From the NCBI GenBank assembly GCA_020634975.1, contig JACKAQ010000001.1, positions 297,808-361,807 of the forward strand: a stretch of 64,000 nucleotides of DNA, given 5' to 3'. Below are positions 18,441-41,419 of the stretch, piece by piece. The stretch's first letter is position 1; each line of letters begins with the position of its first letter. Made by a program: the position numbers and the translations under genes. Under the pieces are notes generated by a model. That model did no database searches, was not told the DNA's origin, and saw only the letters and a program-made list of their open reading frames with translations. The stretch is from Calditrichia bacterium. Lineage in GTDB: Bacteria; Calditrichota; Calditrichia; RBG-13-44-9; J075.

Positions 18441-18677
18441 TTGATGCGCGATTTCCCGCTCTGTGGTCTGTTTTGGTGACTGACAAACATACGAAGCGCC
18501 ATTGAATATTGCAAGATGGATGAAGAAAGGATAAAAGATGAAAAATCCGGAATCCCGGATTACATCCTTCAATGCGCCTCTTTAAAACAGCTCAGGATGC
18601 AACGACTGGCAACACCGGCACTTTTTAAAAAAAATAAATTTGAATAATTCATCCGGGCACGGGTAATATTAGATGTC

Positions 18678-27083: not shown

Positions 27084-28049
27084 ATGAGAACAATCTCCGA
27101 AACACAACTGGACGAAATATTTGGCATCGGCAGCGCCGTCACATTTAAACAAGTGATTGAAGAAGCGCGAATGCTGGCAAAAATTCCCCGCCCGATCATG
27201 ATTCAGGGCGAACGCGGAACGGGCAAGGAATTGCTGGCGCGCGCCATTCATTTGGAAAGCGACCGGAAAAAACAACCGTATGTTGTGGTCAATTGTGCTG
27301 CGTTTCAGGAAGATTTGTTTGCTGCGGAAATGTTTGGCCGGGAAAAAGGCGCGTACACCGGCGCTGTTGATTCGCGTCCCGGCAGACTGGAACTGGCCGA
27401 CGGCGGCACGCTGTTTTTGGACGAAGTGGCGAATATGAGCCGTGCGGTTCAGGAAAAATTGCTTCGCGTGATCGAATATCAACAATTTGAACGGCTCGGC
27501 GGCAGCAAACCGATTTCGGTGGATGTGCGGATTATTGCCGCAACCAACGCCAATCTCGATCAACTCATGGAAAAATCAGAATTTTTGCCGGATTTGTATG
27601 ACCGGTTATCGTTTGCGGTGCTCACTTTGCCACCGCTGCGAAAACGACGGGAAGATATCCCATCGCTGATCGAACACTTCATTTGTCAACTCCACAAAGA
27701 AATTCCCAACCTCGAACACAAATCGTTTACGCCTTCCGCGATTCAGGAACTCCAGAATTACCATTGGCCGGGGAACATCCGGCAGCTCAAAAACATCATC
27801 GAGCGCATTTATATTTCCGACGAAGACGGTACCATCAACGCATCGGAACTGCCGATCGAAATTACATCTGTGGAACCGATCCGCGGTAATTTCTACGAAA
27901 AAGTGCGCGCGTACGAAATCAACCTGTTGCTCAACTCGCTGAAAGATTTTGATGGCAACCAGCGCGCCGCAGCCGAAAATCTTGGGATGTCTTACGACCA
28001 GTTCCGCCACTTCTACAAAAAATACAAGTTGGAAGATTATCTGGTGTAA
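27084..28049 (+). CDS. pspF: Sigma-54-dependent transcriptional activator, AAA+ domain plus C-terminal HTH only (PspF-like, no receiver or sensor domain)
   Basis: It has Walker A (GERGTGKE), a GAYTGA loop (GAFTGA variant), Walker B (LFLDEV), an arginine finger region and a C-terminal Fis-type HTH. Confidence 0.85.
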   Translation: MRTISETQLDEIFGIGSAVTFKQVIEEARMLAKIPRPIMIQGERGTGKELLARAIHLESDRKKQPYVVVNCAAFQEDLFAAEMFGREKGAYTGAVDSRPGRLELADGGTLFLDEVANMSRAVQEKLLRVIEYQQFERLGGSKPISVDVRIIAATNANLDQLMEKSEFLPDLYDRLSFAVLTLPPLRKRREDIPSLIEHFICQLHKEIPNLEHKSFTPSAIQELQNYHWPGNIRQLKNIIERIYISDEDGTINASELPIEITSVEPIRGNFYEKVRAYEINLLLNSLKDFDGNQRAAAENLGMSYDQFRHFYKKYKLEDYLV

Positions 28050-28118: not shown

Positions 28119-28134
28119 TGGCATTCAGATTGCA
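28119..28134 (+). promoter_or_regulatory. Sigma-54 (-24/-12) promoter
   Basis: TGGCAT-TCAGA-TTGCA has exact consensus spacing (GG at -24, GC at -12). It lies 70 nt downstream of the activator gene and ~180 nt upstream of the next ORF. Confidence 0.55.
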
Positions 28135-28312
28135 ATATTATGGCATGAAGCCTGTGAAGGGGCTGTTAAATGACCAAAATAAATGACAATATGAAACAGA
28201 TTTCCAGAAATTGTCGGGCAGATTTTCTCACCGGAAGATTTCCGGTTTATCCGCGGCAATTGCTGAGAAATATCTTTTTCAACGAACAAGCTTGAGTTTT
28301 TTGGGGTGTGTT

Positions 28313-28732
28313 ATGGTGCAGCAAGACCGTTTTCAATATGAAATGAAGAACATTCTGGAAGCAAAAACATTGCTGGTTGTGCGGGCTGCAAAGCGCGTTC
28401 ACTACCGGTTGGGCAATGTTTCCGATCAAAAAAATTATCTGGATGCATTACAACGCGAATTTGAAGCGGATCATATTCGCTTCAAGAAAGAAGAACCGCA
28501 GCCGGAAGAAGACCTGCCCTCGCGAAGGCTAAAAAAGGATTATCTCTGCTTTGGCAACATGCTGGTGCGAACTATTAATGGTAATGTGATTCCCGAAAAC
28601 GATATTTTAAATTTTCGTAAAGAGCTGAAAAGATTAAACTTGCAATGCGGACTGATCGTAGGATTTTCGGATGACGGCATTGTCGTTGAACGGGTGACGG
28701 TTACAGAATCAAATAAACACAATTTATCCTGA
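28313..28732 (+). CDS. Hypothetical protein, first gene after the sigma-54 promoter
   Basis: It is a 139-aa ORF co-directional with the cluster. I recognise no domain. Confidence 0.4.
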   Translation: MVQQDRFQYEMKNILEAKTLLVVRAAKRVHYRLGNVSDQKNYLDALQREFEADHIRFKKEEPQPEEDLPSRRLKKDYLCFGNMLVRTINGNVIPENDILNFRKELKRLNLQCGLIVGFSDDGIVVERVTVTESNKHNLS

Positions 28733-28748
28733 GCAAACGGAGCACATC

Positions 28749-29282
28749 ATGAAAACAGTACCGCTATTTGAAGAAGAGCAGCAATTTCGCCAACCCTGGC
28801 TGATGGCGCTGCTCGGCATTACGGTGGCGCCGATTACACTGTTTTTGATTTATGTGATGATTTCGCAACTGGTTTTCGGAATTCCGGTTGGCAGCAAACC
28901 GATGCCGAACGCGATGGCCATCTGGTTCATGCCGTTGATGGTGTTGATTTGCAGCGGCATTATTTGGTTGTTTTGGAAAAGCAAATTAATCGTTCGCATC
29001 GATTCGGAAATGCTGCTTATCCGTTTTTTCCCATTCACGAAACGGGAAATACCGCTCTCGAAAATCCGGGAATTTGAAGCGCGGAAATACAATCCGCTCG
29101 GCGAATACGGTGGTTGGGGCGTACGATTGGGCTGGAAAGGCGGCAAAGCCTACACGGTCAGCGGAAATCACGGTGTTCAATTTGTGTTTCGTAATGGCGA
29201 AAAATTGTTGATCGGCTCGCAAAAAGCGACAGAATTTGAAGCTGCACTGCGGAGCGCTCTCGCTGAAAAAATAGACAAATAA
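28749..29282 (+). CDS. Membrane protein with 2 TM helices plus a C-terminal bacterial-PH-like domain (hypothetical)
   Basis: It has two N-terminal TM segments followed by a ~90-aa beta-rich domain. Confidence 0.5.
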   Translation: MKTVPLFEEEQQFRQPWLMALLGITVAPITLFLIYVMISQLVFGIPVGSKPMPNAMAIWFMPLMVLICSGIIWLFWKSKLIVRIDSEMLLIRFFPFTKREIPLSKIREFEARKYNPLGEYGGWGVRLGWKGGKAYTVSGNHGVQFVFRNGEKLLIGSQKATEFEAALRSALAEKIDK

Positions 29283-29332
29283 ATGTTTAATAATATTACA
29301 CTTACAACACTCATTTTTCGGAGGATTTTATC

Positions 29333-30055
29333 ATGAATATTTTTCAAAGAATCACAAAATTGGTCGAAGCCAACGTCAATTCGATGCTGGATAAAGCCGA
29401 AGACCCGGAAGTGATGGTTCGCCAAATCATTCGTGAAATGGAAGAAAGCATCATCGAATTGCGCCGCGAAACCGTAAAAGCCGTTGGCGCCCGCAAATTG
29501 CTGGAAAAGAAAATGCAGCTGCTCAATGAAAAATCCGCTGATCTCCAGCAAAAAGCCACACTCGCGCTGGAAAACGGAAACGAAGATTTAGCGCGCAAAT
29601 TGCTGGAACAAAAAATCGATGTCGAGAAAGAGAACAGCCAACTCGCAAATGAAGTAGAAACAGCAACTTATCTTGCCGAAAAAATGAAACAGGATTTGGT
29701 AAAACTGGAAGACCAGGTGCAAATTGCCCGTCGCCAAAAAGAGGAATTGATTCGCCGTAAACTCGCCGCCGAACGCAAAATGAACGCCACCGGCGCCATT
29801 CGCAAAACCCGCGATGCGTTGGAAGCGCTCACCGGTGCCACCAATAGTGCGGACGCGAATATCAACGCCATCGAAGCGCAAAAAGATAAAATTCTGCAAT
29901 TGGAAGCCGAAGCCGAGGCGATGGAAGAATTGATGGAAGGGAAATCCGCAGACGCCGAAAGCGAAAAAGAGCTGGAAAAAATGATCCAGAATAAAGCGGT
30001 GGAAGACGAATTGGCAAAGCTGAAAAAGATGCTCAGTGACGGCAAAAAAAAGTAG
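29333..30055 (+). CDS. pspA: PspA/IM30 (Vipp1/LiaH) family protein, paralog 1
   Basis: There is a GGAGG ribosome-binding site. The N-terminus MNIFQRITKLVEANVNSMLDKAEDPEVMVRQIIREMEE is followed by a long coiled coil, the typical PspA signature. Confidence 0.85.
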   Translation: MNIFQRITKLVEANVNSMLDKAEDPEVMVRQIIREMEESIIELRRETVKAVGARKLLEKKMQLLNEKSADLQQKATLALENGNEDLARKLLEQKIDVEKENSQLANEVETATYLAEKMKQDLVKLEDQVQIARRQKEELIRRKLAAERKMNATGAIRKTRDALEALTGATNSADANINAIEAQKDKILQLEAEAEAMEELMEGKSADAESEKELEKMIQNKAVEDELAKLKKMLSDGKKK

Positions 30056-30113
30056 CGAATTGAAACAGATCATAAAACCAATTTCGAGTAGCTAATTCAA
30101 TGGGAGAATCACC

Positions 30114-30734
30114 ATGTTAAAACTATACCTCGCCTGCCTATTATTTGGTGGCTTATTTATCATCATCTCCCTGTTTTTTGGCGCGGATGCTGACGCGGAA
30201 GCCGATGTGGATGTGGATGTTGACACTGACATCGACGTGGATACGGATGTGGAAATGGACGCCGACGCCGCAGAAGTCGAAGTTTCCGGCGAAGGTACTG
30301 TGGAAGCCATTAAATTTCTCAGCTTTCGCAATTTTGTGTTTTTTGTGGCCTTTTTCGGGCTCACCGGCAGCCTGCTCACCTGGATTGGCAGCAACTTTTT
30401 GTTGACGTTTGGCGCAGCCATTACGCTGGGATTTGTGGCGGCAACCGTTATGCATCGGGTGATGAAACAACTGGCGGCAACCGAAGTGGGCGAAACGCTG
30501 AATCTCGACCGGTTGGTTGGCATGCCGGCAAAAGTGACGATCAACGTTTCCCGGGATCATCGCGGCAAAGTATCGCTGGAAGCCGTCGGACAACGCATGC
30601 AGCTCCTCGCCCAAACGGCAGAAGAATCGGAACGCGATGAGTTCAGTGTTGGTGAATCGGTTTACATTTTGCACGTAAAAAACGGTATTGCATTTGTTGT
30701 GGAAGAAGCCTTTATCAACTCCGCAACCATTTGA
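30114..30734 (+). CDS. NfeD-like (YuaF-type) membrane protein with an acidic low-complexity linker and a C-terminal OB-fold
   Basis: It has an N-terminal TM segment, a DADAEADVDVDVDTDIDVDTDVEMDADAA tract, further TM segments and a C-terminal beta domain (KVTINVS...VGESVYILHVKNGIAFV). It lies directly upstream of the flotillin gene. Confidence 0.6.
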   Translation: MLKLYLACLLFGGLFIIISLFFGADADAEADVDVDVDTDIDVDTDVEMDADAAEVEVSGEGTVEAIKFLSFRNFVFFVAFFGLTGSLLTWIGSNFLLTFGAAITLGFVAATVMHRVMKQLAATEVGETLNLDRLVGMPAKVTINVSRDHRGKVSLEAVGQRMQLLAQTAEESERDEFSVGESVYILHVKNGIAFVVEEAFINSATI

Positions 30735-30784
30735 TCACCCGTTTATTTATAAATTCGCAGATGTAAAATAATGGAGGATGTCAC

Positions 30785-30982
30785 ATGATTACCAAAGATT
30801 ACCACCGCACATTATTTCTTTCGATGATTTTGATCGCCCTCGGTGTGTCGATTTCCACCACAATGGGGGATTCTTCGGGCACCATTGGCACGGTGATGAT
30901 CGCCGTTGGCGGCTTATTTTTTATCATCGGAATGACCAAAAGAAGAAAATTTGAACAAAAAAATCACCACCCAAAATCATAG
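30785..30982 (+). CDS. Small 2-TM membrane protein
   Basis: It has a GGAGG ribosome-binding site, 65 aa and two hydrophobic helices. Confidence 0.4.
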   Translation: MITKDYHRTLFLSMILIALGVSISTTMGDSSGTIGTVMIAVGGLFFIIGMTKRRKFEQKNHHPKS

Positions 30983-30993
30983 AAAGGTTAGCT

Positions 30994-31173
30994 ATGATAT
31001 ACGTTGGTTTACTGATTTTAGCTTATGTGGCGGTTTGTCTCTATCGCGGAAATTTGATTTGGGAATTGGGCGTTTCCCGCCGCAGTAACAGTCCTTATTT
31101 TTACTGGTTTGGTATCGGAACTTATTCGGTAGTCGCGCTGATGATGATTTACGCAGGCTACATAAATCTATAA
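30994..31173 (+). CDS. Small 2-TM membrane protein (59 aa), not in the ORF track
   Basis: An AAAGG ribosome-binding site precedes it. The sequence is MIYVGLLILAYVAVCLYRGNLIWELGVSRRSNSPYFYWFGIGTYSVVALMMIYAGYINL. Confidence 0.3.
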   Translation: MIYVGLLILAYVAVCLYRGNLIWELGVSRRSNSPYFYWFGIGTYSVVALMMIYAGYINL

Positions 31174-31228
31174 TAAACATTTGTTTGCAATTCAACTTAA
31201 CCAACTTAACTTTTAGGAGGGTTGTGAT

Positions 31229-32773
31229 ATGGATTTCATAAGTGCTATCATATTTATCGTTGTTATCCTCGCGGTTGTTGTGGTGATGATGGTCAGCCGC
31301 TTGCTGATTGTCTGCCATCCCAACGAAGTTGTGATACTTTCCGGACGCAAACGTAAACTGCCGGACGGATCGATTGTCGGTTACCGGCTCATTCGCGGCG
31401 GTCGCGCGGTGCGCATGCCGGTGCTGGAAAAAGCAGCCCGCATGTCGCTGGAATCGATTCCCCTGGAGCTTTCGGTGCGCAACGCGTATTCCAAAGGCGG
31501 TATTCCGTTGAATGTGGATGCCATCGCCAACATCAAAATTGATTCGACAGAACCGGCGTTCGGCAACGCGGTCGAGCGTTTTTTGATGAAACCGATGCAG
31601 GAAATTCACCAGATTGCGAAAGATACGCTGGAAGGTAACCTGCGCGGCGTGCTGGCATCGCTGACGCCGGAAGAAGTGAACGAAGACCGCCTGAAGTTTG
31701 CCCAAAGCCTTATCGAAGAAGCGGATAACGATTTGAACCAACTCGGTTTGCAACTCGATACGCTGAAAATTCAGAATGTCGCGGACGAAGCGGGATATCT
31801 CGATTCGATCGGTCGCCGCAAAACCGCCGAAGTGCTCTCAACCGCACGAATGGCAGAAGCCGCAAAAGCCGCCGAAGCGGAACAGGCAGAAGCGGAAGCA
31901 CGCCAGTTTGCGGAAATTGCCAAAGCCAAAGCAGATCAGGAAATTAAAGCGGCGCAAATTTCTGCGGATCGCGAAGTGAAGATGGCCAAAGCCCGCGCCG
32001 ATGCCGCAGCCCGTCAGGCGGAAGCGGAGCAGGAAGCCGTCGCAAAGGAAGCGGAAGCGACATCACTGCGGAAAGCTGAGGTCGCAAAAGCAATGGCTGA
32101 TCAGGAAATTCGCACATCGCAAATTAAGGCAGATCAAGAGGTTAAGGTATCTCGCGCTATTGCAGATCAACAGATCGAAACTGAGAACAACAATCTGCGT
32201 ATGAAAAAAGCGGAACTGGAACGCGAAGCCATTATCATGGAAAAAGAAGCGGAAGTTGCCGGACAAAAAGCCCAGGCAAAATACGAACAGGATATGGAAG
32301 AAGAACGCATTCTGCTGCAACAAAAACGCCTGATGGCAGACGTTATCGAACCCGCAAAAGCCAAAAAAGAAGCGATGGAGCTGGAAGCACGCGGCGAAGC
32401 TGCGCCGATTCTCGAGAAAGGTAAAGCGAACATCGAAGTGCTGGATCAGATGATCAAAACCTACCTCAGCGCCAAAGGTGAAGGCGAAAAAGTATTCATG
32501 CTGAACATGTTGCCGGATATTATCAAACAACTGTCCGACACGGTGAACAAGGTCACGATCGACAAAGTGAGTGTGATCGACAGCGGCGGAAACGGCAGCC
32601 ACGGCGTGGCAAATTTCATCAACCAGTTGCCCGCAGCAGTGGTTTCGCTGGCGGAACAGATCGAAAACGCCACCGGTGTGAACATCCTCAACCAGTTCAA
32701 ACAGAAACCGGAAATTGGTCAGATTGTCCACCACAACGGTGAGCACGACAAAGCGAAAGATGATGAGAAGTAG
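31229..32773 (+). CDS. floT: Flotillin (SPFH/Band-7 domain, FloT/YuaG-like)
   Basis: It has an N-terminal TM segment and an SPFH domain, followed by long Ala/Glu-rich EA-repeat coiled coils (AEAEQAEAEARQ...). Confidence 0.85.
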   Translation: MDFISAIIFIVVILAVVVVMMVSRLLIVCHPNEVVILSGRKRKLPDGSIVGYRLIRGGRAVRMPVLEKAARMSLESIPLELSVRNAYSKGGIPLNVDAIANIKIDSTEPAFGNAVERFLMKPMQEIHQIAKDTLEGNLRGVLASLTPEEVNEDRLKFAQSLIEEADNDLNQLGLQLDTLKIQNVADEAGYLDSIGRRKTAEVLSTARMAEAAKAAEAEQAEAEARQFAEIAKAKADQEIKAAQISADREVKMAKARADAAARQAEAEQEAVAKEAEATSLRKAEVAKAMADQEIRTSQIKADQEVKVSRAIADQQIETENNNLRMKKAELEREAIIMEKEAEVAGQKAQAKYEQDMEEERILLQQKRLMADVIEPAKAKKEAMELEARGEAAPILEKGKANIEVLDQMIKTYLSAKGEGEKVFMLNMLPDIIKQLSDTVNKVTIDKVSVIDSGGNGSHGVANFINQLPAAVVSLAEQIENATGVNILNQFKQKPEIGQIVHHNGEHDKAKDDEK

Positions 32774-32948
32774 GTTAAAAAAACCGCACCATCAGCATGA
32801 AACGCTTGTTCCGCGCTGATGGTGTGTTAAAACAAACGAAAACAAATATTTAGAAATACATCGAATTTTTCAAAAAATGAAAAAGAACAAGACTATTTCT
32901 GCCGGGTTGATGAAAGTATGAACAGAAAAAAACCTAAAACACTGAGCC

Positions 32949-33395
32949 GTGAAGATAGAGCTAAAAGGCGAAAAAGAGAGACTAATCAAACTCATTTTAT
33001 CAAAGCTATTCATCAGCCTTTTATTGGGGATGTTTAACGGTGCAGTTGTAGATAATATTAAAATAGGATTCTGGTCGGTTTTAATTTTCATAGCAACATT
33101 TACGGCTTCCTATTTTATTAGAAATTACATTCGTGTTCGACTTTATCTAACTGCTGTTCTATGGGGTTTGGTTTGGGGCGCATGTATGTCAGGTATCTTA
33201 ACACTCAATTATTACGGACGACATGGGTTCAGAGATGATACGATCGCATTAGCAATTATTATGCTTTTGGGTTATTCACTCATGTTCGTAATAGATATTT
33301 ATATTGGGAGACATGATTATATTAAACCAGATTTTCAGTCTTATGGTGAGTTTTACAAAAGCTGGTTCAATTATAAGTATCTTAAAAACAAATAA
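32949..33395 (+). CDS. Hypothetical 4-TM membrane protein in an AT-rich islet (GTG start)
   Basis: The ORF is 148 aa. The local GC (~33%) is far below the neighbours. Confidence 0.3.
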   Translation: MKIELKGEKERLIKLILSKLFISLLLGMFNGAVVDNIKIGFWSVLIFIATFTASYFIRNYIRVRLYLTAVLWGLVWGACMSGILTLNYYGRHGFRDDTIALAIIMLLGYSLMFVIDIYIGRHDYIKPDFQSYGEFYKSWFNYKYLKNK

Positions 33396-33427
33396 TTAGA
33401 CTCAAAATATTTGAAAGGAGCACAGTA

Positions 33428-33991
33428 TTGGGATTCACAAATTTTTTCAAAGGAAAAAAAGAAGGTGAAGAATTTGATCCACTACGGGACTTGACACTTT
33501 CAAAAATGAAGGTCGGGTATTTTGTTGAATTTGATCTGAAAACCTGGCAGGTTACCGCATACAATAAATACGATTTTGGCGACGGCTTATGGAGCGAGGA
33601 ATGGGAACTGACCTCCGGTCGCGAAAAAATCTGGCTGGAAAAACGCGAAGATGACGAAGTGGAATGGACCGTCAGCAAAAAGCTGCCAATCGGCGCAATT
33701 GCGGAAGATGTCCGCCAGCACGTCAAAGATTTCGACGATCCGCCGGGGCAAATTTCCGTGAAGGAAAAAACGTTTTATCTGGATGAATCCGGTTCGGTCT
33801 ATTATTATCCCGGTGGCAACACTCAACAACAGGGTCAGGGTATCATCGCATGGGAATATATTGATGATGACGATGAAAATTTTGTGAGCATCGAGCAATG
33901 GGGCGAGGATGATTTTGAAGCATCGCAAGGCTATTATGTGGAAGAATTTATGTTTAGCAACATCCTGCCGTCGGGGGACGCACAAGCTTGA
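33428..33991 (+). CDS. DUF4178-like protein (PspA-neighbourhood family)
   Basis: It has a TTG start after AAAGGAG. The sequence KVGYFVEFDLKTWQVTAYNKYDFGDGLWSEEWEL...IWLEKREDD fits the DUF4178 pattern as I recall it. It has an acidic C-terminus. Confidence 0.45.
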   Translation: MGFTNFFKGKKEGEEFDPLRDLTLSKMKVGYFVEFDLKTWQVTAYNKYDFGDGLWSEEWELTSGREKIWLEKREDDEVEWTVSKKLPIGAIAEDVRQHVKDFDDPPGQISVKEKTFYLDESGSVYYYPGGNTQQQGQGIIAWEYIDDDDENFVSIEQWGEDDFEASQGYYVEEFMFSNILPSGDAQA

Positions 33992-34102
33992 CGGAAGCAT
34001 GGATAAAGGATAAAGTAAATTTTTTGACTTTTTCAATATTAAACAATAAAAAACAACATTTCTAAATCAATAAAATACAAACACTTAAAAAAGGGGTTTG
34101 TT

Positions 34103-34819
34103 TTGAAAAAAACAATTACATTTGCACTTTTCGGAATTGTTGCGTTGCTGCTGTCGAGCTGCGGCGCATCGAATCCGGTTGAGAAAATGCAACGCGAGCT
34201 GGACGATTATCCGGAATATTCCATTATTCTGGAAGATATGAAAATGGAAGGCACTTTTTTTAAGGATTACTTTCATCAATATAAAATTATTCATGCGGAA
34301 AAAGCCGGTGATTCGCTGGCATATTTCACCAATCAAACAGAATGGATTTTGGTAGATGAAGATTTTTTCAGCAATTACCAACGGTATTTGGGAATGACAA
34401 TTGCATCCAAATCTGCTGAAGGTGATGTGAGCGACTCTCCGCAACCGCCGGGCTACCAATATGTTGGCGATGAACGCTACGGCCAATGGCGAACCGATAA
34501 CTCCGGCAACAGCTTTTGGGAATTTTACGGAAAATATGCCATGTTGCAGGCGCTGCTCGGCGGCTGGAATCGCCCGATTTATCAGGATGACTGGCGCGAT
34601 TACCGCACCTCCCGGCGCAACAATCAGCCGTATTTCGGCAAAAATCGCCAGTGGGGCACCGACGGAACCGCAACGAAAAAAACGAATCCAACATTTTTCC
34701 AACGCCGCCAAATGCGCGAGCAGGCGTCCAAACAATCCTTTACGGATAAGCTGAAACAACGCACACGCCGCAGTAATATGAGTAAATCCCGAAGCCGCAG
34801 CGGTGGTTTTGGAAAATAA
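34103..34819 (+). CDS. Lipoprotein with a basic C-terminal tail (possible DUF4247-type partner of DUF4178)
   Basis: It has a lipobox (LLSSC) and a Trp/Tyr-rich central region. The C-terminus is KLKQRTRRSNMSKSRSRSGGFGK. Confidence 0.5.
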   Translation: MKKTITFALFGIVALLLSSCGASNPVEKMQRELDDYPEYSIILEDMKMEGTFFKDYFHQYKIIHAEKAGDSLAYFTNQTEWILVDEDFFSNYQRYLGMTIASKSAEGDVSDSPQPPGYQYVGDERYGQWRTDNSGNSFWEFYGKYAMLQALLGGWNRPIYQDDWRDYRTSRRNNQPYFGKNRQWGTDGTATKKTNPTFFQRRQMREQASKQSFTDKLKQRTRRSNMSKSRSRSGGFGK

Positions 34820-34834
34820 ACAAATGAGGAAATA

Positions 34835-35017
34835 ATGAAACATAACGATCAAAATCAGGACAATAAAAAAGAAATGGGAAAATGGGTTGCCGTTGGCATC
34901 GCTATCGGAACGGCAATGGGCGTTTCGATGGATAATATCGGGCTTGGCATCTCGTTGGGTCTTGTGATCGGTCTGGCAATCGGCACAGTAAAATCCCGAA
35001 ATGATAAAACGGAGTAA
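34835..35017 (+). CDS. Glycine-zipper small membrane protein
   Basis: It has a GAGGAA ribosome-binding site. The sequence is WVAVGIAIGTAMGVSMDNIGLGISLGLVIGLAIG. Confidence 0.45.
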   Translation: MKHNDQNQDNKKEMGKWVAVGIAIGTAMGVSMDNIGLGISLGLVIGLAIGTVKSRNDKTE

Positions 35018-35020
35018 AAA

Positions 35021-35866
35021 ATGACTTTAGACCAAACCATATCCGGACTAATTTACCTTATTGCAGTGTTTATACTTTTTTGGCTGGGAAAAGTGGTTTA
35101 TGGAATAACCAATCCGCGCATCAATTTGCGCGATGAATTGGTGAAAAAAGATAATCTGGCGATGGCGCTGGCAGTGATCGGCTACTATTTCGGGCTGATT
35201 ATCGCGTTGGGTGGCGTGCTTTCCAGCGAATCCGCAGGATTGTTCATCGATCTGTTCGAAATATTTTTTTACGGCATTATTTCGATTGTCCTGATGAATT
35301 TTTCGATTAAAATCAATGACAAAATCATCCTCAGCAAATTTGACAATATCAAAGAAATTATCGATGATCAGAACGCCGGAACGGGCGTTGTGGAAGCGGC
35401 CAACCACATTGCTGTGGGCATGATTATCGCCGGCGCGATGAGCGGCGATTACGGCGGCTGGGCAACTGCGCTCACATTCTGGATTTTGGGACAAGCCGTG
35501 CTGATTGTCGCAGGCATTGTTTACGCCAAAATTCTGCCGTTCGATCTGCACGCGGAAATCGAAAAAGATAACGTTGCTGTGGGCGTTGCGTTTGCGGGTG
35601 TGCTGATCGCCATCGGCAACATCTTGCGCATCGGCTCCACCGGCGATTTTATTTCGTGGCAACAGAATCTCACCACGTTTTTCGGATTCGTCATATTCGG
35701 ACTGGTGCTGCTGCCGGTTTTGCGCTTTCTGACCGACAAAGTGTTGCTCCCCGGCGAAAAACTTACCGATGAACTGGTGAACCAGACAAATCCGAATATC
35801 GGTGCCGGTGCGGTGGAAGCGTTTGCCTATATCGGTGCGTCGTTTTTGATTGGTTGGGTTATATAG
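35021..35866 (+). CDS. Membrane protein with internally repeated DUF350-like units
   Basis: There are four repeats of N-x-A-x-A/G-x-x-x-x-G-x-x-I-A-x-G with TM helices: DNLAMALAVIGYYFGLIIALGG, NAGTGVVEAANHIAVGMIIAGA, DNVAVGVAFAGVLIAIGN and NIGAGAVEAFAYIGASFLIG. Confidence 0.5.
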   Translation: MTLDQTISGLIYLIAVFILFWLGKVVYGITNPRINLRDELVKKDNLAMALAVIGYYFGLIIALGGVLSSESAGLFIDLFEIFFYGIISIVLMNFSIKINDKIILSKFDNIKEIIDDQNAGTGVVEAANHIAVGMIIAGAMSGDYGGWATALTFWILGQAVLIVAGIVYAKILPFDLHAEIEKDNVAVGVAFAGVLIAIGNILRIGSTGDFISWQQNLTTFFGFVIFGLVLLPVLRFLTDKVLLPGEKLTDELVNQTNPNIGAGAVEAFAYIGASFLIGWVI

Positions 35867-35914
35867 CTGGTTTCTAGTTTCTGGTTTCTGGTTTCTGGAT
35901 TGAAGATTCTGGAT
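35867..35914 (+). repeat. Heptamer array TTCTGGT/TTCTGGA (x5, degenerate) immediately 5' of the four-helix-bundle gene
   Basis: The sequence is ctggtttctagtttctggtttctggtttctggattgaagattctggat. Confidence 0.6.
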
Positions 35915-35951
35915 GCTCTGAAAAATGTAAACTTAAGTGCAGAATGTGAAA

Positions 35952-36395
35952 ATGAGTTACAAAAAATTGCAGATATGGCAGCTATCTCGTGAAATTGTGA
36001 TTGATATTCACAAAATGACGCTGGAAACGTTACCAAAATTTGAGATGTTCGAAACAGGATCACAAATTCGCAGATCGAGCAAATCGACCAAATCTTTGAT
36101 TGTGGAAGGATACGGCAGGCGCTATTATAAACAGGATTTCATACGTTATTTATTGAATGCGCTCGCCTCTAACGATGAAACAATTGATCATTTAGAAACC
36201 CTTTTCGAAACAAAGTCTTTATCTGATTCAATTCTGTACGAAAACATACACGAACGGCTTATTTCTTTAGGTAAAATGCTCAACAATTTCATCAACTCGG
36301 TTCAAAAAAATCATCAGACACCATCGATTTATGTAAAGGAAGAAATGCCAGACTATCTGAATTTTCCGGAAACAAAAGATGACAAAACAGAATAA
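35952..36395 (+). CDS. Four-helix-bundle protein (TIGR02436, 23S rRNA intervening-sequence protein family)
   Basis: [59 protein letters not shown] matches the family. GC is ~33% against ~52% for the neighbours. Confidence 0.7.
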
Positions 36396-36451
36396 AATTT
36401 TTGCAAATATAGATTCGGAATCCAGAACTTGCGCTGAGCGCAGCCGAAGCG

Positions 36452-36481
36452 TCCAGAATCCAGAATCCAGAATCCAGAATC
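36452..36481 (+). repeat. Heptamer array TCCAGAA x4 (reverse complement of the upstream array) immediately 3' of the four-helix-bundle gene
   Basis: The sequence is tccagaatccagaatccagaatccagaatc. It is preceded by a further TCCAGAA copy and the near-palindrome GCGCTGAGCGC at 36421-36445. Confidence 0.6.
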
Positions 36482-36495
36482 TCTCCGGCAACTGG

Positions 36496-38013
36496 TTGCT
36501 GAAAGCCTGCATTTTCGCCACCGGGTTATCCGGAATTGTGGCGGAATACGTGATGTCCACGCTGGCGAGTTATCTGCTCGGTAACTCCGTTTTGCAATGG
36601 ACACTCACTATTTCCATCATGCTGTTTGCGATGGGCGTTGGCAGCCGTTTCAGCAAATTTGTGGATGACGCGTTGCTGGATGCCTTCGTTTTCACGGAAT
36701 TACTGCTCTCCGTTTTATGCGCGATCAGCGCTACAACTATCTATTTTTTATCGGCTTACATGAATCCGATAACACCGCTGATTTACACGCTGTCATTCGC
36801 AATCGGTTTGCTGATCGGGCTGGAAATTCCGCTGGCAACCCGTCTCAACGATTATTTTGAGGATTTGAAAATCAACATCAGTTCGGTAATGGAAAAAGAT
36901 TATTACGGCGCGTTGCTCGGCGGCTTGCTGTTTGCGTTTGTCGCCCTCCCCTACCTCGGTTTAACTTATACGCCCATTTTGCTCGGCGCAGTAAATTTTG
37001 CAGTCGCGGCGGCGCTATTTTGGCAGCATCGCGATTCGCTAAAATTTCCGAAAACACTCACTGCCGGATTTTTGATCGTGCCCGCCTTGCTCGGCGCATT
37101 GGCCGTTTCGGCGGAGCCGATTGTGCTGTATGGCGAGCAGCAAAAATATGTGGATAAAGTTGTTTATCAGGAGCAAACGCCCTATCAGCGAATTGTGATC
37201 ACTCAATTCAAAAATGATTACTGGCTGTATCTCAATGGAAATGAACAATTTAGCAGCTACGACGAACACCGCTATCACGAACCGCTGGTGCATCCGGCAA
37301 TGCTGGCGAGCGTTGCGCATAAAAATGTGCTGATTCTCGGTGGCGGCGATGGATTGGCTGCGCGGGAAATCCTCAAATATCCCGACGTCGAAAAAATTAC
37401 GTTGGTCGATCTCGATCCGGCGATGACGGAACTCGGCAAGAATTACCCGGTTTTTCGCCAACTCAACCAAAATGCGCTCAGCGATCCCCGGGTGCACATT
37501 CGCAACGAGGACGCATACACATTTTTGCAGCAAACCCGGGAAATTTTCGATGTGATTATTATCGATTTGCCCGACCCGAAAACCATCGAGCTGGCGCGAT
37601 TGTACACCCGGGAATTTTATCAATTGGCGAAACGTCAACTGTCCAAAGGCGGGATTGTGGTTACGCAAGCTGGCAGCCCGTTTTTTTCACGGGAAGCGTA
37701 TCTCTGCATATTGCAAACGATGCGAACTGCCGGATTGGCTGCGATTCCTTATCACAACCACATTCCAACACTCGGCGAATGGGGCTGGGTGCTGGCAATG
37801 AATGCGGAAATTGACGAAAATCGTTTGAAAAATCACCTGCTATCACTATCATTTGATGATTTGCAAACACGTTTTTTAAACCGGGACGCAATGGCGGCGA
37901 TGCTTCTTTTCGGCAAAAACGAACTGGCCGGTATCGATGCCATTCGCGTTAATTCTGAACTGGAACTCGCATTATTTGATTATTACAAAAATGGGTCGTG
38001 GGAATTTTATTGA
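36496..38013 (+). CDS. Spermidine/spermine-synthase-like aminopropyltransferase fused to an N-terminal polytopic (~7 TM) membrane domain
   Basis: The C-terminal domain has LILGGGDGLAAREILKYPDVEKITLVDLDP...DVIIIDLPDP, the SpeE fold motifs. The N-terminal 220 aa are hydrophobic helices. The start is uncertain: I use TTG 36496, and the open frame begins at 36379 inside the repeat. Confidence 0.7.
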   Translation: MLKACIFATGLSGIVAEYVMSTLASYLLGNSVLQWTLTISIMLFAMGVGSRFSKFVDDALLDAFVFTELLLSVLCAISATTIYFLSAYMNPITPLIYTLSFAIGLLIGLEIPLATRLNDYFEDLKINISSVMEKDYYGALLGGLLFAFVALPYLGLTYTPILLGAVNFAVAAALFWQHRDSLKFPKTLTAGFLIVPALLGALAVSAEPIVLYGEQQKYVDKVVYQEQTPYQRIVITQFKNDYWLYLNGNEQFSSYDEHRYHEPLVHPAMLASVAHKNVLILGGGDGLAAREILKYPDVEKITLVDLDPAMTELGKNYPVFRQLNQNALSDPRVHIRNEDAYTFLQQTREIFDVIIIDLPDPKTIELARLYTREFYQLAKRQLSKGGIVVTQAGSPFFSREAYLCILQTMRTAGLAAIPYHNHIPTLGEWGWVLAMNAEIDENRLKNHLLSLSFDDLQTRFLNRDAMAAMLLFGKNELAGIDAIRVNSELELALFDYYKNGSWEFY

Positions 38014-38089
38014 GAACCGATTGATAAACAACCTGATCAGCAAAATAAAATCGAATAGATAGAAGCCAAAAGCCAAGTGCCAAAAGCCA

Positions 38090-39100
38090 ATGAAAAATAT
38101 TGCCCATAACATTATCAAATTTGTCATCAAGGAAAACCTGCACCGCATTTTGCTGATCATGTTGTTGCTGATTGTTTTCGGTGCGGTGGGCATGGCGATT
38201 TTTGAGCCGAATGTCAATTGGGATAACGCATTGTGGTGGAGTATCGTCACGTTGACCACTGTCGGATATGGCGATATTGCGCCAACTACGTTCGGCGGGC
38301 GCATCGTTGGATCGATCATCATGATTTTGGGTATCGGCATTTTGGGGATGTTCACGGCAACCATCGCCAGCGTATTTGTGGAGCAAAAACTGAAAGTGAA
38401 TCGCGGAATGAGTAATTACGATTTCACCAATCACACGATTATTTGTGAATGGAATTATCGCGCCAAAGAAATTTTGAGAGAGCTGCGTTCAGACAGTCGC
38501 GTGCTGGATCAACCCATCATTTTGATCGCAGATATCGACGAAAAACCGGTGAATGACGAAAATCTCCATTTCATCAAAGGCGAAGTGGACGAAGCAAATT
38601 TGCAGCGCGCCAATATTGCGGCTGCAAAAACGGTCGTCATTCTCGGCGATGACAAATTGGATAACAACGCCCGCGATGCGCAAGTGGTGCTCGCTGCGCT
38701 GATTATCGAATCCATCAACCCGAGCGCTTACACAATTGTGGAATTGGTGAACGAACAAAACGTGGCGCATTGCCGTAAAGCGCATGTGGACGAAATTATT
38801 GTTTTAAATGAGTTTAGCAGCCGCCTAATTGCCCGCGCAGCGCTCGATCACGGTATTTCGAAAGTGATGAGCGAACTGCTCAGCGCCAGCACCGGCAACA
38901 ATTTGTATCAGGTGCCGGTGCCCCGCGAACTGGCAGATCAATCATTTCTGGTTGTGTTTTCGGAGATGAAACGCACCCGGAACAGCATTGTTCTGGCGGT
39001 GTATCGCCGGGATCAGGATATCGTAATTTCCAACCCGGATGTGGATTTGAAAGTAGCAGCGAACGACCAGTTGGTCATCGTTTCGCAAAACGAACAGTAA
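38090..39100 (+). CDS. MthK-like K+ channel (2TM pore plus RCK/TrkA-N domain)
   Basis: The selectivity filter is TLTTVGYGD, followed by an RCK Rossmann domain. Confidence 0.85.
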   Translation: MKNIAHNIIKFVIKENLHRILLIMLLLIVFGAVGMAIFEPNVNWDNALWWSIVTLTTVGYGDIAPTTFGGRIVGSIIMILGIGILGMFTATIASVFVEQKLKVNRGMSNYDFTNHTIICEWNYRAKEILRELRSDSRVLDQPIILIADIDEKPVNDENLHFIKGEVDEANLQRANIAAAKTVVILGDDKLDNNARDAQVVLAALIIESINPSAYTIVELVNEQNVAHCRKAHVDEIIVLNEFSSRLIARAALDHGISKVMSELLSASTGNNLYQVPVPRELADQSFLVVFSEMKRTRNSIVLAVYRRDQDIVISNPDVDLKVAANDQLVIVSQNEQ

Positions 39101-39114
39101 TTTGAGGTGATGAA

Positions 39115-39480
39115 ATGTCCCTTTTTTCGAGAATCGCAGGAATTATTCGCGCTAACCTGAATTTCCGGCGCGATGATGTTGACATCGACGATAGCGTTTA
39201 CGAAGAAATTCGTGATTCGCAGCGCGAATATCAACGCCAAAAACAGCAGCGCAACGATGCCAATCATCACCGGAATGACGATCCGTTGGCCAAACACTAC
39301 GCCAATCTTGAAGTGCCGTACGGCTCGGATCTGGAAACTGTCACCAAATCGTGGAAAGCGTTGCTGCGCAAATATCACCCGGATATTCATTCCGGCGATC
39401 CCGAAAAACAGAAAATTGCGAATCAACTTGTTCAGGAATTAAACCAATCTTATAATGAGTTGAAAAAAAAGTTACGCTAA
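39115..39480 (+). CDS. J-domain protein (C-terminal DnaJ domain) with a PspA-like N-terminal amphipathic helix
   Basis: The J domain is DLETVTKSWKALLRKYHPDIHSGDPEKQKIANQLVQELNQSY (HPD motif). The N-terminus MSLFSRIAGIIRANLN parallels MGIFSRIFKIF and MNIFQRITKLVEANVN of the two PspA paralogs. Confidence 0.65.
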   Translation: MSLFSRIAGIIRANLNFRRDDVDIDDSVYEEIRDSQREYQRQKQQRNDANHHRNDDPLAKHYANLEVPYGSDLETVTKSWKALLRKYHPDIHSGDPEKQKIANQLVQELNQSYNELKKKLR

Positions 39481-39556
39481 AAATTGATCATAAATAATTG
39501 TTTTCATTAGGATTAATCAACACAATTAATTCACTATTACAACAGGAGGCTAACGT

Positions 39557-39958
39557 ATGGCCATGTTTAGCAAATTCGAAATGGTTAAGGATTATTTAAT
39601 GGAACTCGGCTTTGCGATTATTCGCGAAGATGAGGATGAAGAGATCGTGGTTGTAAATGATCCCGATAATGGCATCAACAATATGGTCATCGATTGCGAA
39701 GACCCGATTGTGATTATGGAGCAATTGATTATGGAAGTGCCGGAAAAACCCGGTGATTTGTATGAAAAATTGCTGAAAATGAACCGCACACTGGTTCACG
39801 GCGCATTTGTGCTGGATGAAGAAGGCAAACGCGTTATTTATCGCGATACGCTGCAGTTGGAAAATCTCGATAAAAATGAGCTGGAAGCCTCGATTGTCGC
39901 GCTTTCCATGGGCATTGCAGAATTTGGCAGCGAGTTGCTGAAATACGCAAAACGCTAA
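39557..39958 (+). CDS. YbjN-like small acidic protein (candidate PspA-associated partner)
   Basis: It has an AGGAGG ribosome-binding site and 133 aa. It lies immediately upstream of the second pspA. Confidence 0.45.
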   Translation: MAMFSKFEMVKDYLMELGFAIIREDEDEEIVVVNDPDNGINNMVIDCEDPIVIMEQLIMEVPEKPGDLYEKLLKMNRTLVHGAFVLDEEGKRVIYRDTLQLENLDKNELEASIVALSMGIAEFGSELLKYAKR

Positions 39959-40021
39959 TTTTTTTATCGCTTAACTATTTGATAATATTTAATTTGAAAC
40001 CAAACTTCAGGAGATAAAAAG

Positions 40022-40741
40022 ATGGGTATTTTTTCGCGCATATTCAAAATTTTCCAGTCGGAGGCGCATTCAGTTGTGGATCAACTGGAAGATCCGATCA
40101 AATTGACCGAACAGGGCATTCGCGATTTGAAAAAAGATTTGGCGCAAGCCATGCGTAGCCTGGCGGAAGTGAAATCGTTGTCCATCCGCATGCGCAAAGA
40201 CGGCGAAGACCAGAAAAAGCTTGCTGCCGATTACGAACGCAAAGCCATGATGCTGCTCCAACGCGCCCAAAGCGGCGAACTGGACGCCGCAGAAGTTGAC
40301 CGTTTGGCAACCGAAGCGCTCACCAAAAAAGAAGATTCCTCACGCCGCGCACAGGAATTTATGACCAATCACGAGCAGCAGCAGAAAATGGCTGACCAGT
40401 TGCAGAACAAAGTGAACAAACTGAAATCTGCGATTTCCAAATATGAAAACGAGTTGGTCACTCTTCGCGCCCGCGCCCGCACTGCGGAATCGATGAAAAA
40501 AATCAACAAACAAATGGCGCAAGTTGATGCATCCAGCACCGTTGCGATGCTCGAAAAAATGAAAGACAAAGTGACCGAAGAAGAATCGCTGGCGGAAGCC
40601 TACGGCGAAATGGCCGACACAACCAAATCCGTTGACGAAGAAATTGACAAAGCGTTGGCGGGTGCGTCTGTGGATGCCGCAAAAGATTCGCTGGCAGCGC
40701 TAAAAGCCAAAATGGGCTTAAAAGAAGGCGATGCCAAATAG
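40022..40741 (+). CDS. pspA: PspA/IM30 family protein, paralog 2
   Basis: The N-terminus MGIFSRIFKIFQSEAHSVVDQLEDPIKLTEQGIRDLKKDL is followed by a coiled coil. Confidence 0.8.
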   Translation: MGIFSRIFKIFQSEAHSVVDQLEDPIKLTEQGIRDLKKDLAQAMRSLAEVKSLSIRMRKDGEDQKKLAADYERKAMMLLQRAQSGELDAAEVDRLATEALTKKEDSSRRAQEFMTNHEQQQKMADQLQNKVNKLKSAISKYENELVTLRARARTAESMKKINKQMAQVDASSTVAMLEKMKDKVTEEESLAEAYGEMADTTKSVDEEIDKALAGASVDAAKDSLAALKAKMGLKEGDAK

Positions 40742-40858: not shown

Positions 40859-41419
40859 TCAGTATTCGGGCAACACATCTTTCGGCGCATTTTTCAACGC
40901 CGGGTGCAATTCGTCTTTCGGCGATAAAACCGGATTTACATCCAGTTGCCAGTCGATGCCAATTTCCGGATCGGACCATTGGATGCCGTATTCATCTTTT
41001 CCGTCGTAAAAATCCGTGCATTTATAGGTCACGTTCGCGGTTTCGCTGACCACGTAAAATCCGTGGGCGAATCCCGGCGGCACATAAATTTGCCATTTGT
41101 TGCGTTCGGAAAGCGTTACACCGACCCATTTTCCAAACGTTGGCGAGCCTTTGCGGATGTCCACTGCCACATCAAAAATTTCGCCGGAAACCGCCTGAAC
41201 CAGTTTGCCCTGCGGGCGTTTCAATTGATAATGCAATCCCCTCAAAATGCCTTTTGTGGAAAACGAGTGATTGTCCTGCACAAAATTTTCGCGAATACCG
41301 GCTTCGGCGTATTTTTCCGCATGAAATGTTTCCATAAAAAAGCCGCGCGGATCGCGGAACACCCGCGGCTTGATAACCAGAACTTCCGGAATTTCCGTTG
41401 GCTCAACCGTAATCGACAT
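40859..41419 (-). CDS. rfbC: dTDP-4-dehydrorhamnose 3,5-epimerase
   Basis: RGFFMETF...RGLHYQ...KLVQAVSGEIFDVAVDIR is a cupin RmlC signature. Confidence 0.9.
   Translation of the reverse strand: MSITVEPTEIPEVLVIKPRVFRDPRGFFMETFHAEKYAEAGIRENFVQDNHSFSTKGILRGLHYQLKRPQGKLVQAVSGEIFDVAVDIRKGSPTFGKWVGVTLSERNKWQIYVPPGFAHGFYVVSETANVTYKCTDFYDGKDEYGIQWSDPEIGIDWQLDVNPVLSPKDELHPALKNAPKDVLPEY

Follow-up and report, generated by a model that had tools for sequence, protein, structure and literature searches.

A conserved lipoprotein-DUF350-SpeE gene trio in a putative membrane-stress cluster of a Calditrichia bacterium

In a 64 kb stretch of DNA from a Calditrichia bacterium (hereafter the window, whose numbering is used throughout), the interval 33428-38013 of the + strand appears to form the central part of a membrane-stress cluster of the phage shock protein (Psp) type. 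Its core is a trio of genes coding for a lipoprotein (34103-34819), an eight-transmembrane (8-TM) DUF350 protein (35021-35866) and a membrane-fused SpeE-like aminopropyltransferase (36379-38013). We tentatively propose, giving it slightly less than an even chance, that this trio spans the envelope and that, under stress, it would aminopropylate an amine other than putrescine with decarboxylated S-adenosylmethionine (dcSAM) as donor, the catalytic domain probably lying outside the cytoplasm. The comparison behind this proposal covered relatives at 80 species-level loci with more than 10 phylum-level labels, onto each of which all proteins of the window were mapped.

In the proposed arrangement, the lipoprotein would reside on the outer face of the inner membrane, together with the 8-TM DUF350 protein and an enzyme joined through its seventh TM helix (TM7) to a half-transporter. 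As acceptor, one may think of a longer polyamine or of an amine bound in the envelope, on a lipid head group or on the partner lipoprotein for instance. One cationic substrate, either dcSAM or the acceptor, would be carried over the membrane by the transporter-like domain and/or DUF350, and the product would add positive charge to the stressed envelope or stabilise it. A PspF-like activator and a sigma-54 promoter would tie expression to that of PspA, while the DUF4178, CesT-like and PspA proteins, possibly with a K+ channel and a DnaJ-type protein, would constitute a cytoplasmic membrane-repair arm.

Catalytic domain of the SpeE-like protein

The 544-aa SpeE-like protein matched PF01564 (E 2e-44) and, at 604.5 bits for a cut-off of 472, the model NF002956/PRK03612.1 ('polyamine aminopropyltransferase'), its residues 28-542 aligning with positions 10-519 of a 522-position profile. 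The model NF037959, named 'fused MFS/spermidine synthase' (MFS, major facilitator superfamily), was also passed (60.8 bits, cut-off 40). A six-helix MFS-like half (residues 43-217) is followed by TM7 (228-246) and by the catalytic domain (247-544). A preliminary description of this DNA had proposed that a SpeE-like domain was fused to a domain of about seven TM helices, and seven hydrophobic segments indeed precede the catalytic domain. It had also considered the function of such membrane-anchored proteins as not established; likewise, our search of the open-access literature found no report on the experimental function of a membrane-fused SpeE-like enzyme.

Catalytic residues were aligned to thermospermine synthase (6bq2) and to SpeE from T. 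thermophilus (1uir), with residue roles taken from plant enzymes (PMC6514230), for which the adenine-stacking Ile is named as well. In this alignment, D324 corresponded to the Asp of GGGDG, which contacts the aminopropyl amine, and D378 to the acid binding adenine N6. D344 aligned with the ribose acid, which we take to be its role in SpeE structures, and L345 with the adenine stacker. The catalytic base D396 and the substrate-positioning D399 formed the D-x-x-D pair within IDLPDP, while Y299 and H300 lined the acceptor site in an invariant Y299-H300-E301 triplet. Throughout 120 sequences, the dcSAM-binding and catalytic residues were invariant except for L345, from the Asp of GGGDG and the acids that contact ribose and adenine to the D-x-x-D pair, so that the retention of SpeE residues, on which the preliminary description had made its proposal depend, was borne out. 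Since these residues were invariant, the SAM/dcSAM-binding motifs are not missing from the domain. Judged from the alignment, every residue needed for dcSAM binding and amine deprotonation is kept.

The acceptor side was more distinctive. A 'TQAG' segment resembled that of the thermospermine/Thermus type, unlike the putrescine-site Glu of classical spermidine synthases (SpdSyn), and the closest catalytic relatives were thermospermine or broad-specificity synthases rather than putrescine-specific ones. The N-terminal beta-hairpin domain of SpdSyn closes the putrescine groove. In the SpeE-like protein, the corresponding region directly follows TM7 and the tetramerisation-domain profile PF17284 remained below its cut-off (15.3 bits versus 22.1), with only 18 residues matching. 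Because of the TQAG segment and the sub-cut-off beta-hairpin domain, an acceptor other than putrescine is favoured; both features point away from free putrescine as substrate.

Membrane domain and side of the catalytic domain

The membrane domain was as well conserved as the catalytic core, with a majority-residue frequency of 0.78 for TM1-6 (43-217) versus 0.74 for the catalytic core. The corresponding value for TM7 (228-246) was 0.48, this helix being a poorly conserved linker. Invariant or near-invariant polar residues were found in or beside the membrane (E56, E107, E149, R155, N157, E172 and D174). A Pfam search yielded no match to an MFS sequence profile, and the organization is that of six helices plus one, not the 12-TM fold made of two halves. 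Yet 170 residues superposed on the six-helix half of NorA at 2.4 Å. The domain is termed MFS-half-like here, and not a member of the MFS, because no MFS sequence profile matches. Two copies could pair into a 12-helix transporter.

Hydropathy delimited seven hydrophobic segments before the catalytic domain, and the charges of the connecting loops followed a regular alternation. In the 120 sequences, the count of Lys and Arg (K+R) was 4.0 in the N-terminal tail, about 3 in loop 2-3 (with R90 and K93), 2.8 in loop 4-5 and 3.5 in loop 6-7, and close to 0 in loops 1-2, 3-4 and 5-6. Among 150 representatives of clusters built at 50% identity, 77 were predicted to have seven TM helices, typically with some 10-14 K+R on the even side versus 0-2 on the odd side. 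Many of the representatives predicted with six helices displayed an out-of-phase charge pattern, which suggests a missed helix. In addition, a K/R-rich loop directly precedes TM7 and the flank after this helix is neutral or acidic. An MFS half has both of its ends in the cytoplasm (N-in/C-in). Given the seven spans, the N-in charge bias as read by the positive-inside rule and the addition of one helix to an MFS half, the catalytic domain is predicted to be periplasmic, beside the lipoprotein, a placement for which we see about even odds.

Several observations weigh against the proposed reading. First, dcSAM is made in the cytoplasm and, to our knowledge, no SAM-family enzyme works in the periplasm, so that a periplasmic catalytic domain would need an unprecedented export of the donor. 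A motif scan detected no gene for S-adenosylmethionine decarboxylase (AdoMetDC) in the 64 kb window. Pointing the other way, towards a link with dcSAM, genes with the class 1b motif ESHxSIHTWPE were encountered at 3-5 kb from speE in a metagenome-assembled genome (MAG) of Acidobacteriota (L015, around position 12438, - strand) and in a Pseudodesulfovibrio MAG (L053, around 6318, + strand); the scan covered 82 sequences, namely the window, L081 and the 80 loci, and gave no other case. The secondary-structure string from AlphaFold2 (AF2) showed residues 167-216 as one uninterrupted helix which, if a single span, would leave the catalytic domain in the cytoplasm; we suspect that a tight TYTP turn was read as helix in the model, in view of the superposition of 170 residues on the six-helix half of NorA. 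Loop 154-175, the most conserved of all, is predicted to face the cytoplasm, where the docking of a cytoplasmic catalytic domain would fit. As a compartment marker, cysteine depletion of the catalytic domain was strong in the close family (0.14%) but weak over 77 diverse loci (0.39%), where the lipoprotein stood at 0.22% and DUF4178 at 0.56%. Finally, the sigma-54 promoter-like site TGGCATTCAGATTGCA was the sole -24/-12 match with at most one mismatch in the window, a number that is not significant given the roughly 3.4 that chance would produce; the site is weak as a match alone and its position, described below, is what counts.

Part of this evidence favours a different arrangement, in which the enzyme is tethered to the cytoplasmic face and makes spermidine, thermospermine or a longer polyamine at the inner leaflet from cytoplasmic dcSAM, the product stabilising damaged membrane or leaving through the MFS-like domain or DUF350 towards the lipoprotein. 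The established cytoplasmic location of dcSAM, the intact dcSAM site, the single helix of the AF2 string and the cytoplasmic side of loop 154-175 are all in line with it, as is E. coli YjfC, a cytoplasmic enzyme that likewise occurs together with a DUF350 protein and a lipoprotein. We regard this arrangement as a serious possibility, albeit one with clearly less than an even chance. It is opposed by the seven hydrophobic segments with their strong and family-wide N-in charge bias, by the basic loop before TM7 and the neutral or acidic flank behind it, which form the signature of a C-out helix, by the fact that an N-in/C-in half followed by one helix ends outside, and by the reported failure of MFS-SpdSyn fusions to complement a speE deletion (see below). 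The suggestion of local polyamine synthesis at damaged membrane made in the preliminary description loses ground for the same reason, as topology predicts the far side of the membrane and the nearest catalytic relatives are not putrescine-specific.

A more specific version of periplasmic aminopropylation can be formulated, which we consider rather unlikely in its full detail. In this version, the half-MFS domain, probably as a dimer, would hand dcSAM via its membrane carboxylates to the periplasmic domain, which would aminopropylate an amine of the envelope. The amine might belong to a phospholipid head group; lysines of the ever-adjacent lipoprotein, its conserved C-terminal Lys among them, would be further candidates.

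The SpeE-like domain might also have been retained as a sensor of dcSAM, methylthioadenosine (MTA) or a polyamine, gating the MFS-like/DUF350 machinery with no net synthesis and, together with the K+ channel carrying an RCK domain, making membrane remodelling by PspA responsive to the status of polyamines or cations. Such a role would agree with the suggestion that the system 'monitors polyamine concentration' (PMC11237479), with the co-occurrence of a ligand-gated K+ channel in 34 of the 80 loci and with the weakly detectable SpeE tetramerisation domain (the PF17284 score given above). We find it improbable, for the catalytic base D396, D399 and D324 of the aminopropyl pocket are strictly invariant across phyla, as an active enzyme would lead one to expect; enzyme-derived sensors usually lose such residues.

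Two groups of relatives were considered and discarded as evidence on sidedness. P0268, apparently a SpeE-like protein with a single-TM signal anchor, was a singleton on a 1.5 kb contig whose close relatives measure 505-530 aa; it is probably a truncated gene call and was not used. A group of proteins of about 485 aa, considered as a parity test, also displayed seven predicted TM helices, but, with a TM domain distantly homologous to the present one (hhalign 91.6%), it is not independent evidence.

Conservation of the trio and its associated module

DUF350 adjoined SpeE in 78 of the 80 loci and the lipoprotein was present in 74, the exceptions being truncated contigs. The genes always followed one another as lipoprotein-DUF350-SpeE on a single strand; the median gaps measured 15 and 5 nt, and the association is far beyond chance. 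That the gene order is a local accident among five functionally unrelated genes is scarcely credible and, for the core trio, already refuted: the Gly-zipper peptide, the gene for a 23S rRNA intervening-sequence protein (IVP) and the flotillin module (all described below) are lineage-specific additions, but the trio keeps its order, with gaps close to zero, in 74-78 of the 80 loci, which bear more than 10 phylum-level labels, and DUF4178 co-occurs with PspA/CesT in all arrangements.

A second module was more variable. It comprised DUF4178 (51 loci), PspA (46), a CesT-like protein (45), the K+ channel (34) and DnaJ (16), DUF4178 always occurring with PspA/CesT and on either strand relative to SpeE. 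This PspA/DUF4178 module was co-directional with the trio in Calditrichia and Acidobacteriota, convergent and downstream in Binatia, Latescibacterota and Gemmatimonadota, and lacking over a distance of 10 kb in Desulfobacterales, Nitrospinota and other groups. Clustering of the neighbouring open reading frames (ORFs) over the loci did not reveal any further widely conserved partner. The preliminary description had treated five genes of the interval as one unit. Our results show instead an obligate core (lipoprotein-DUF350-SpeE), a member of a movable PspA/CesT(/K+ channel) module, namely DUF4178, and lineage-specific additions. This split between core trio and separate module is new in the present analysis.

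The trio is very widespread. A search for its relatives returned more than 7,800 protein clusters, with Acidobacteriota, Calditrichota, Chlorobiota, Desulfobacterota, Binatia and Gemmatimonadota among the phyla and classes represented; according to the literature, Mycobacterium and Shewanella are carriers as well. The nearest genome locus belongs to the chromosome of a Calditrichia MAG (L009, OZ245730.1), with a SpeE-like protein 95% identical to that of the window.

Partner proteins in the interval

The interval contained six ORFs on the + strand, not five. The five listed in the preliminary description were all present at their coordinates, and the IVP gene at 35937-36395 had been overlooked. 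The family assignments DUF4178, DUF350 and Spermine_synth were all confirmed above curated cut-offs in profile searches.

The DUF350 protein (281 aa; PF03994, E 6e-51) scored 172 bits for a cut-off of 26 and covered two full stretches of the 133-position, 4-TM model, hence its description as a tandem YjfL protein with eight TM helices. Both halves were homologous (z = 12.7) and a [KQ][DN]N-x-[AG] motif recurred before TM2, TM4, TM6 and TM8. The four DUF350 motifs initially noticed hold in this sense, each being an older 2-TM motif. For this protein, both termini are predicted to lie outside (N-out/C-out) and the periplasmic loops to be tiny; the loops facing the cytoplasm are acidic and K/R-rich and, judged over 73 homologues, conserved.

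The lipoprotein (238 aa, Ctha_1186 type) was rightly named as such, since its signal peptide ends with a canonical lipobox (LLLSSC) whose Cys20 was invariant in 42 homologues. It is composed of an aromatic-rich core and of a basic R/S/G-rich tail with a terminal Lys, and no Pfam or NCBIfam family matched it.

The first gene of the interval (33428-33991) codes for a 187-aa DUF4178 protein (PF13785, E 7e-24; 85 bits, cut-off 25) covering 135 of the 136 profile positions and devoid of signal peptide and TM segment. No solved structural relative of DUF4178 or DUF350 was found.

Between the lipoprotein and DUF350 genes lies an ORF for a glycine-rich membrane peptide of 60 aa (34835-35017), which is lineage-specific and had a counterpart only in L009 among the 80 loci. 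As to its former designation as a Gly-zipper, a repeated GxxxG spacing is visible by eye, but glycine-zipper profiles (Gly-zipper_Omp/YMGG/OmpA) gave no match at E <= 0.1. The label is descriptive only, because no profile matches.

The inserted IVP gene and the DUF350-speE junction

The IVP gene (35937-36395, + strand) encodes a four-helix-bundle protein of 152 aa (PF05635, E 8e-24; TIGR02436, E 3e-25) and overlaps the start of speE by 17 nt. Among the 80 loci it was restricted to L001 and L009; elsewhere, the DUF350-speE junction measured about 5 nt. The gene is bracketed by two arrays of heptamer repeats in inverted orientation, a left one (TTTCTGG-like, 35870-35912) and a right one (CCAGAAT x4, 36453-36480), both listed on the + strand. 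The right array falls within codons 25-34 of the SpeE-like ORF and, together with the small palindrome TGCGCTGAGCGCA, encodes residues 17-34 or so of this protein. Compared with the window, the nearest locus (L009) is shorter by 14 nt in the left array and, without a change of frame, by 45 nt at the right one. This difference in copy number shows the arrays to be unstable.

In other lineages, unrelated insertions occupied the same junction. Judged by eye, the inserted gene resembles one for a Uma2-like endonuclease in L002, an AAA ATPase (opposite strand) in L003, a transposase in L016, a thiolase in L063 and, in Latescibacterota/Gemmatimonadota (L041/L075), a short-chain dehydrogenase. Insertions seem to recur at this site.

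Putative regulatory head and surrounding genes

The interval is embedded in a run of 18 same-strand ORFs (28211-40741) unbroken by gaps of more than 175 nt, and this wider PspF/sigma-54/PspA/flotillin cluster had escaped the preliminary description. Ahead of the run lies the gene of a PspF-like sigma-54 activator of 321 aa (27084-28049, + strand; Sigma54_activat, E 1e-61; AAA_lid_14, E 1e-23). Its AAA+ domain begins at residue 16 and is not preceded by a receiver domain, which is the architecture of PspF. Homologues of this activator occurred upstream of the same gene set in seven loci, including L002 and L009. The promoter-like site TGGCATTCAGATTGCA (28119-28134, + strand, one mismatch) is located between the activator gene and the first ORF of the run. 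At the equivalent position, perfect sites were present in L002 and L005, and a site with one mismatch in L009.

The run begins with two ORFs of 173 and 177 aa (28211-29282, + strand), the latter with a sub-threshold DUF6141 match; counterparts of both were recorded only in L009 among the 80 loci. A first PspA/IM30 copy follows (29333-30055, + strand; PF04012, E 9e-34). Between this copy and DUF4178 is situated the flotillin module (30114-33395, + strand), consisting of a 206-aa acidic membrane protein, two small TM peptides, an SPFH/flotillin protein and a 148-aa membrane protein. The SPFH/flotillin gene (31229-32773, + strand) matched Band_7 (E 9e-13) and, below the cut-off of the model, FloT-like NF058507 (E 8e-55). 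Among the 80 loci, the module adjoined the set only in L009.

Downstream of speE, all on the + strand, are found a K+ channel with a cytoplasmic RCK/TrkA-N domain (38090-39100; Ion_trans_2, E 2e-17; Slo-like_RCK, E 9e-9; TrkA_N, E 9e-6), a small J-domain protein (39115-39480; DnaJ, E 5e-8), a CesT/Tir-YbjN-type chaperone-like protein (39557-39958; CesT_Tir_1, E 1e-51) and its partner, a second PspA/IM30 copy (40022-40741; PF04012, E 3e-42). The next gene (40859-41419) is convergent, on the opposite strand, and RmlC-like by eye; no ribbon-helix-helix (RHH) transcription factor, an optional feature of the group-2 systems discussed below, follows the second PspA copy. No Rfam match to a riboswitch or other RNA was obtained in the window.

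Elsewhere in the window, an ORF of 3,585 aa (2766-13523, + strand) is preceded by the gene of a protein (13-2172, + strand) that carries cadherin/Big_9 repeats and, at its C-terminus, a type IX secretion sorting domain. On the - strand (15618-18572), a 984-aa protein has HEAT repeats in addition to a membrane region of the TLC ATP/ADP-transporter/MFS-like type.

Possible implications

The system joins two problems: what PspA-type repair comprises beyond membrane coating, and why many bacteria make dcSAM without spermidine. A periplasmic catalytic domain would represent a new chemistry of envelope remodelling, which could bear on resistance to cationic antimicrobials. Were the domain cytoplasmic, the protein would be a membrane-localised polyamine synthase coupled to export. 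The handover of dcSAM across the membrane, if true, would make this the first extracytoplasmic SAM-family transferase and a new, Psp-controlled modification of envelope charge.

Comparison with known systems

This type of operon has already been described computationally, the window providing a Calditrichia representative. Ravi et al. (2024) reported an association of a CesT/Tir-PspA dyad with a 7TM-SpeE protein, an 8TM YjfL/DUF350 protein, a Ctha_1186 lipoprotein and an intracellular DUF4178 protein (PMC11237479), their group-2 example being the Shewanella oneidensis operon AAN56744-AAN56747, and suggested that the system may monitor polyamine concentration. All five components are also present in the window, in agreement with the likeness to polyamine-linked PspA neighbourhoods noted in the preliminary description. 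In Chloroherpeton thalassium, the locus is ordered DUF4178, a 247-aa protein, DUF350 and SpeE; the 247-aa protein is 48% identical to the lipoprotein of the window and, on the basis of its position in the locus and not of a locus tag, we infer that it is Ctha_1186. In contrast to group 2, the window copy is merged with a PspA-flotillin module corresponding to the first group of Ravi et al. It further contains an RCK K+ channel, listed by these authors under their third group, a J-domain gene, a second PspA, a PspF-like activator with a sigma-54 site and the IVP insertion, and it has no RHH regulator.

The enterobacterial PspF-sigma54-PspABC system shares with the window a PspF-type activator free of receiver domain, a -24/-12 promoter-like site and PspA. 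In the window, however, PspB and PspC were not detected, PspA is present in two copies and the effector set is larger, including flotillin, the polyamine module and the K+ channel.

Clusters with MFS-SpdSyn fusions combine, as in the window, an MFS-type membrane domain, a SpdSyn-like domain and DUF350. In a study by Li et al. (2019), such fusions, which are other members than the present protein, reportedly neither synthesised spermidine nor complemented a speE deletion of E. coli, and DUF350 is said to cluster with them and with AdoMetDC. The window differs by the absence of an AdoMetDC gene and by its best model, which is NF002956/PRK03612 and not NF037959. The enzymes closest in catalytic residues, ACL5 (6bq2) and the triamine/agmatine SpeE of T. 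thermophilus (1uir/3anx), are soluble and cytoplasmic with an N-terminal beta-hairpin oligomerisation domain, whereas in the window protein the beta-hairpin region comes straight after TM7 and stays below the Pfam cut-off.

With respect to layout, the AT3-SGNH O-acetyltransferases OafA and OafB display some similarity. These proteins consist of a membrane domain, an extra TM helix and a transferase domain on the far side; in OafB, the periplasmic domain receives the donor group from the cytoplasm by way of the membrane domain. They are related neither in fold nor in chemistry to the SpeE-like protein, for which sidedness and donor passage are predictions.

The last comparison concerns the yjfIJKLMC operon of E. 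coli (L082; NC_000913.3, 4410133-4414191), in which RefSeq names YjfC a 'peptide--spermidine ligase'. This name follows Pederick et al. 2023, according to the passage of PMC11762307 that cites them. Both operons contain a PspA homologue (YjfJ), a small chaperone-like protein (YjfI), a DUF350 protein (YjfL), a predicted lipoprotein with a basic G/S/R-rich tail (YjfM, DUF1190) and a polyamine-conjugating enzyme. Yet YjfC is a soluble ATP-grasp ligase, not an aminopropyltransferase, and YjfL has four TM helices instead of eight. DUF350 and YjfL (hhalign 83%) provided the sole detectable homology between both operons. The lipoprotein was not retained as a YjfM homologue (hhalign 1%, with a local match over 33 columns at E 0.04-0.05), and none of its 42 family members matched the DUF1190 profile at E <= 1; nor were DUF4178 retained as a homologue of YjfK/DUF2491 (hhalign 0.3%) or the CesT-like protein as one of YjfI (0.2%). 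The tails of YjfM (…TKKASTVSRGGYGRSSSARGHWGG) and of the window lipoprotein (…TRRSNMSKSRSRSGGFGK) are alike in composition, with no detectable homology. By analogy, the parallel suggests that both systems may attach or build polyamine-like groups on a component of the envelope.

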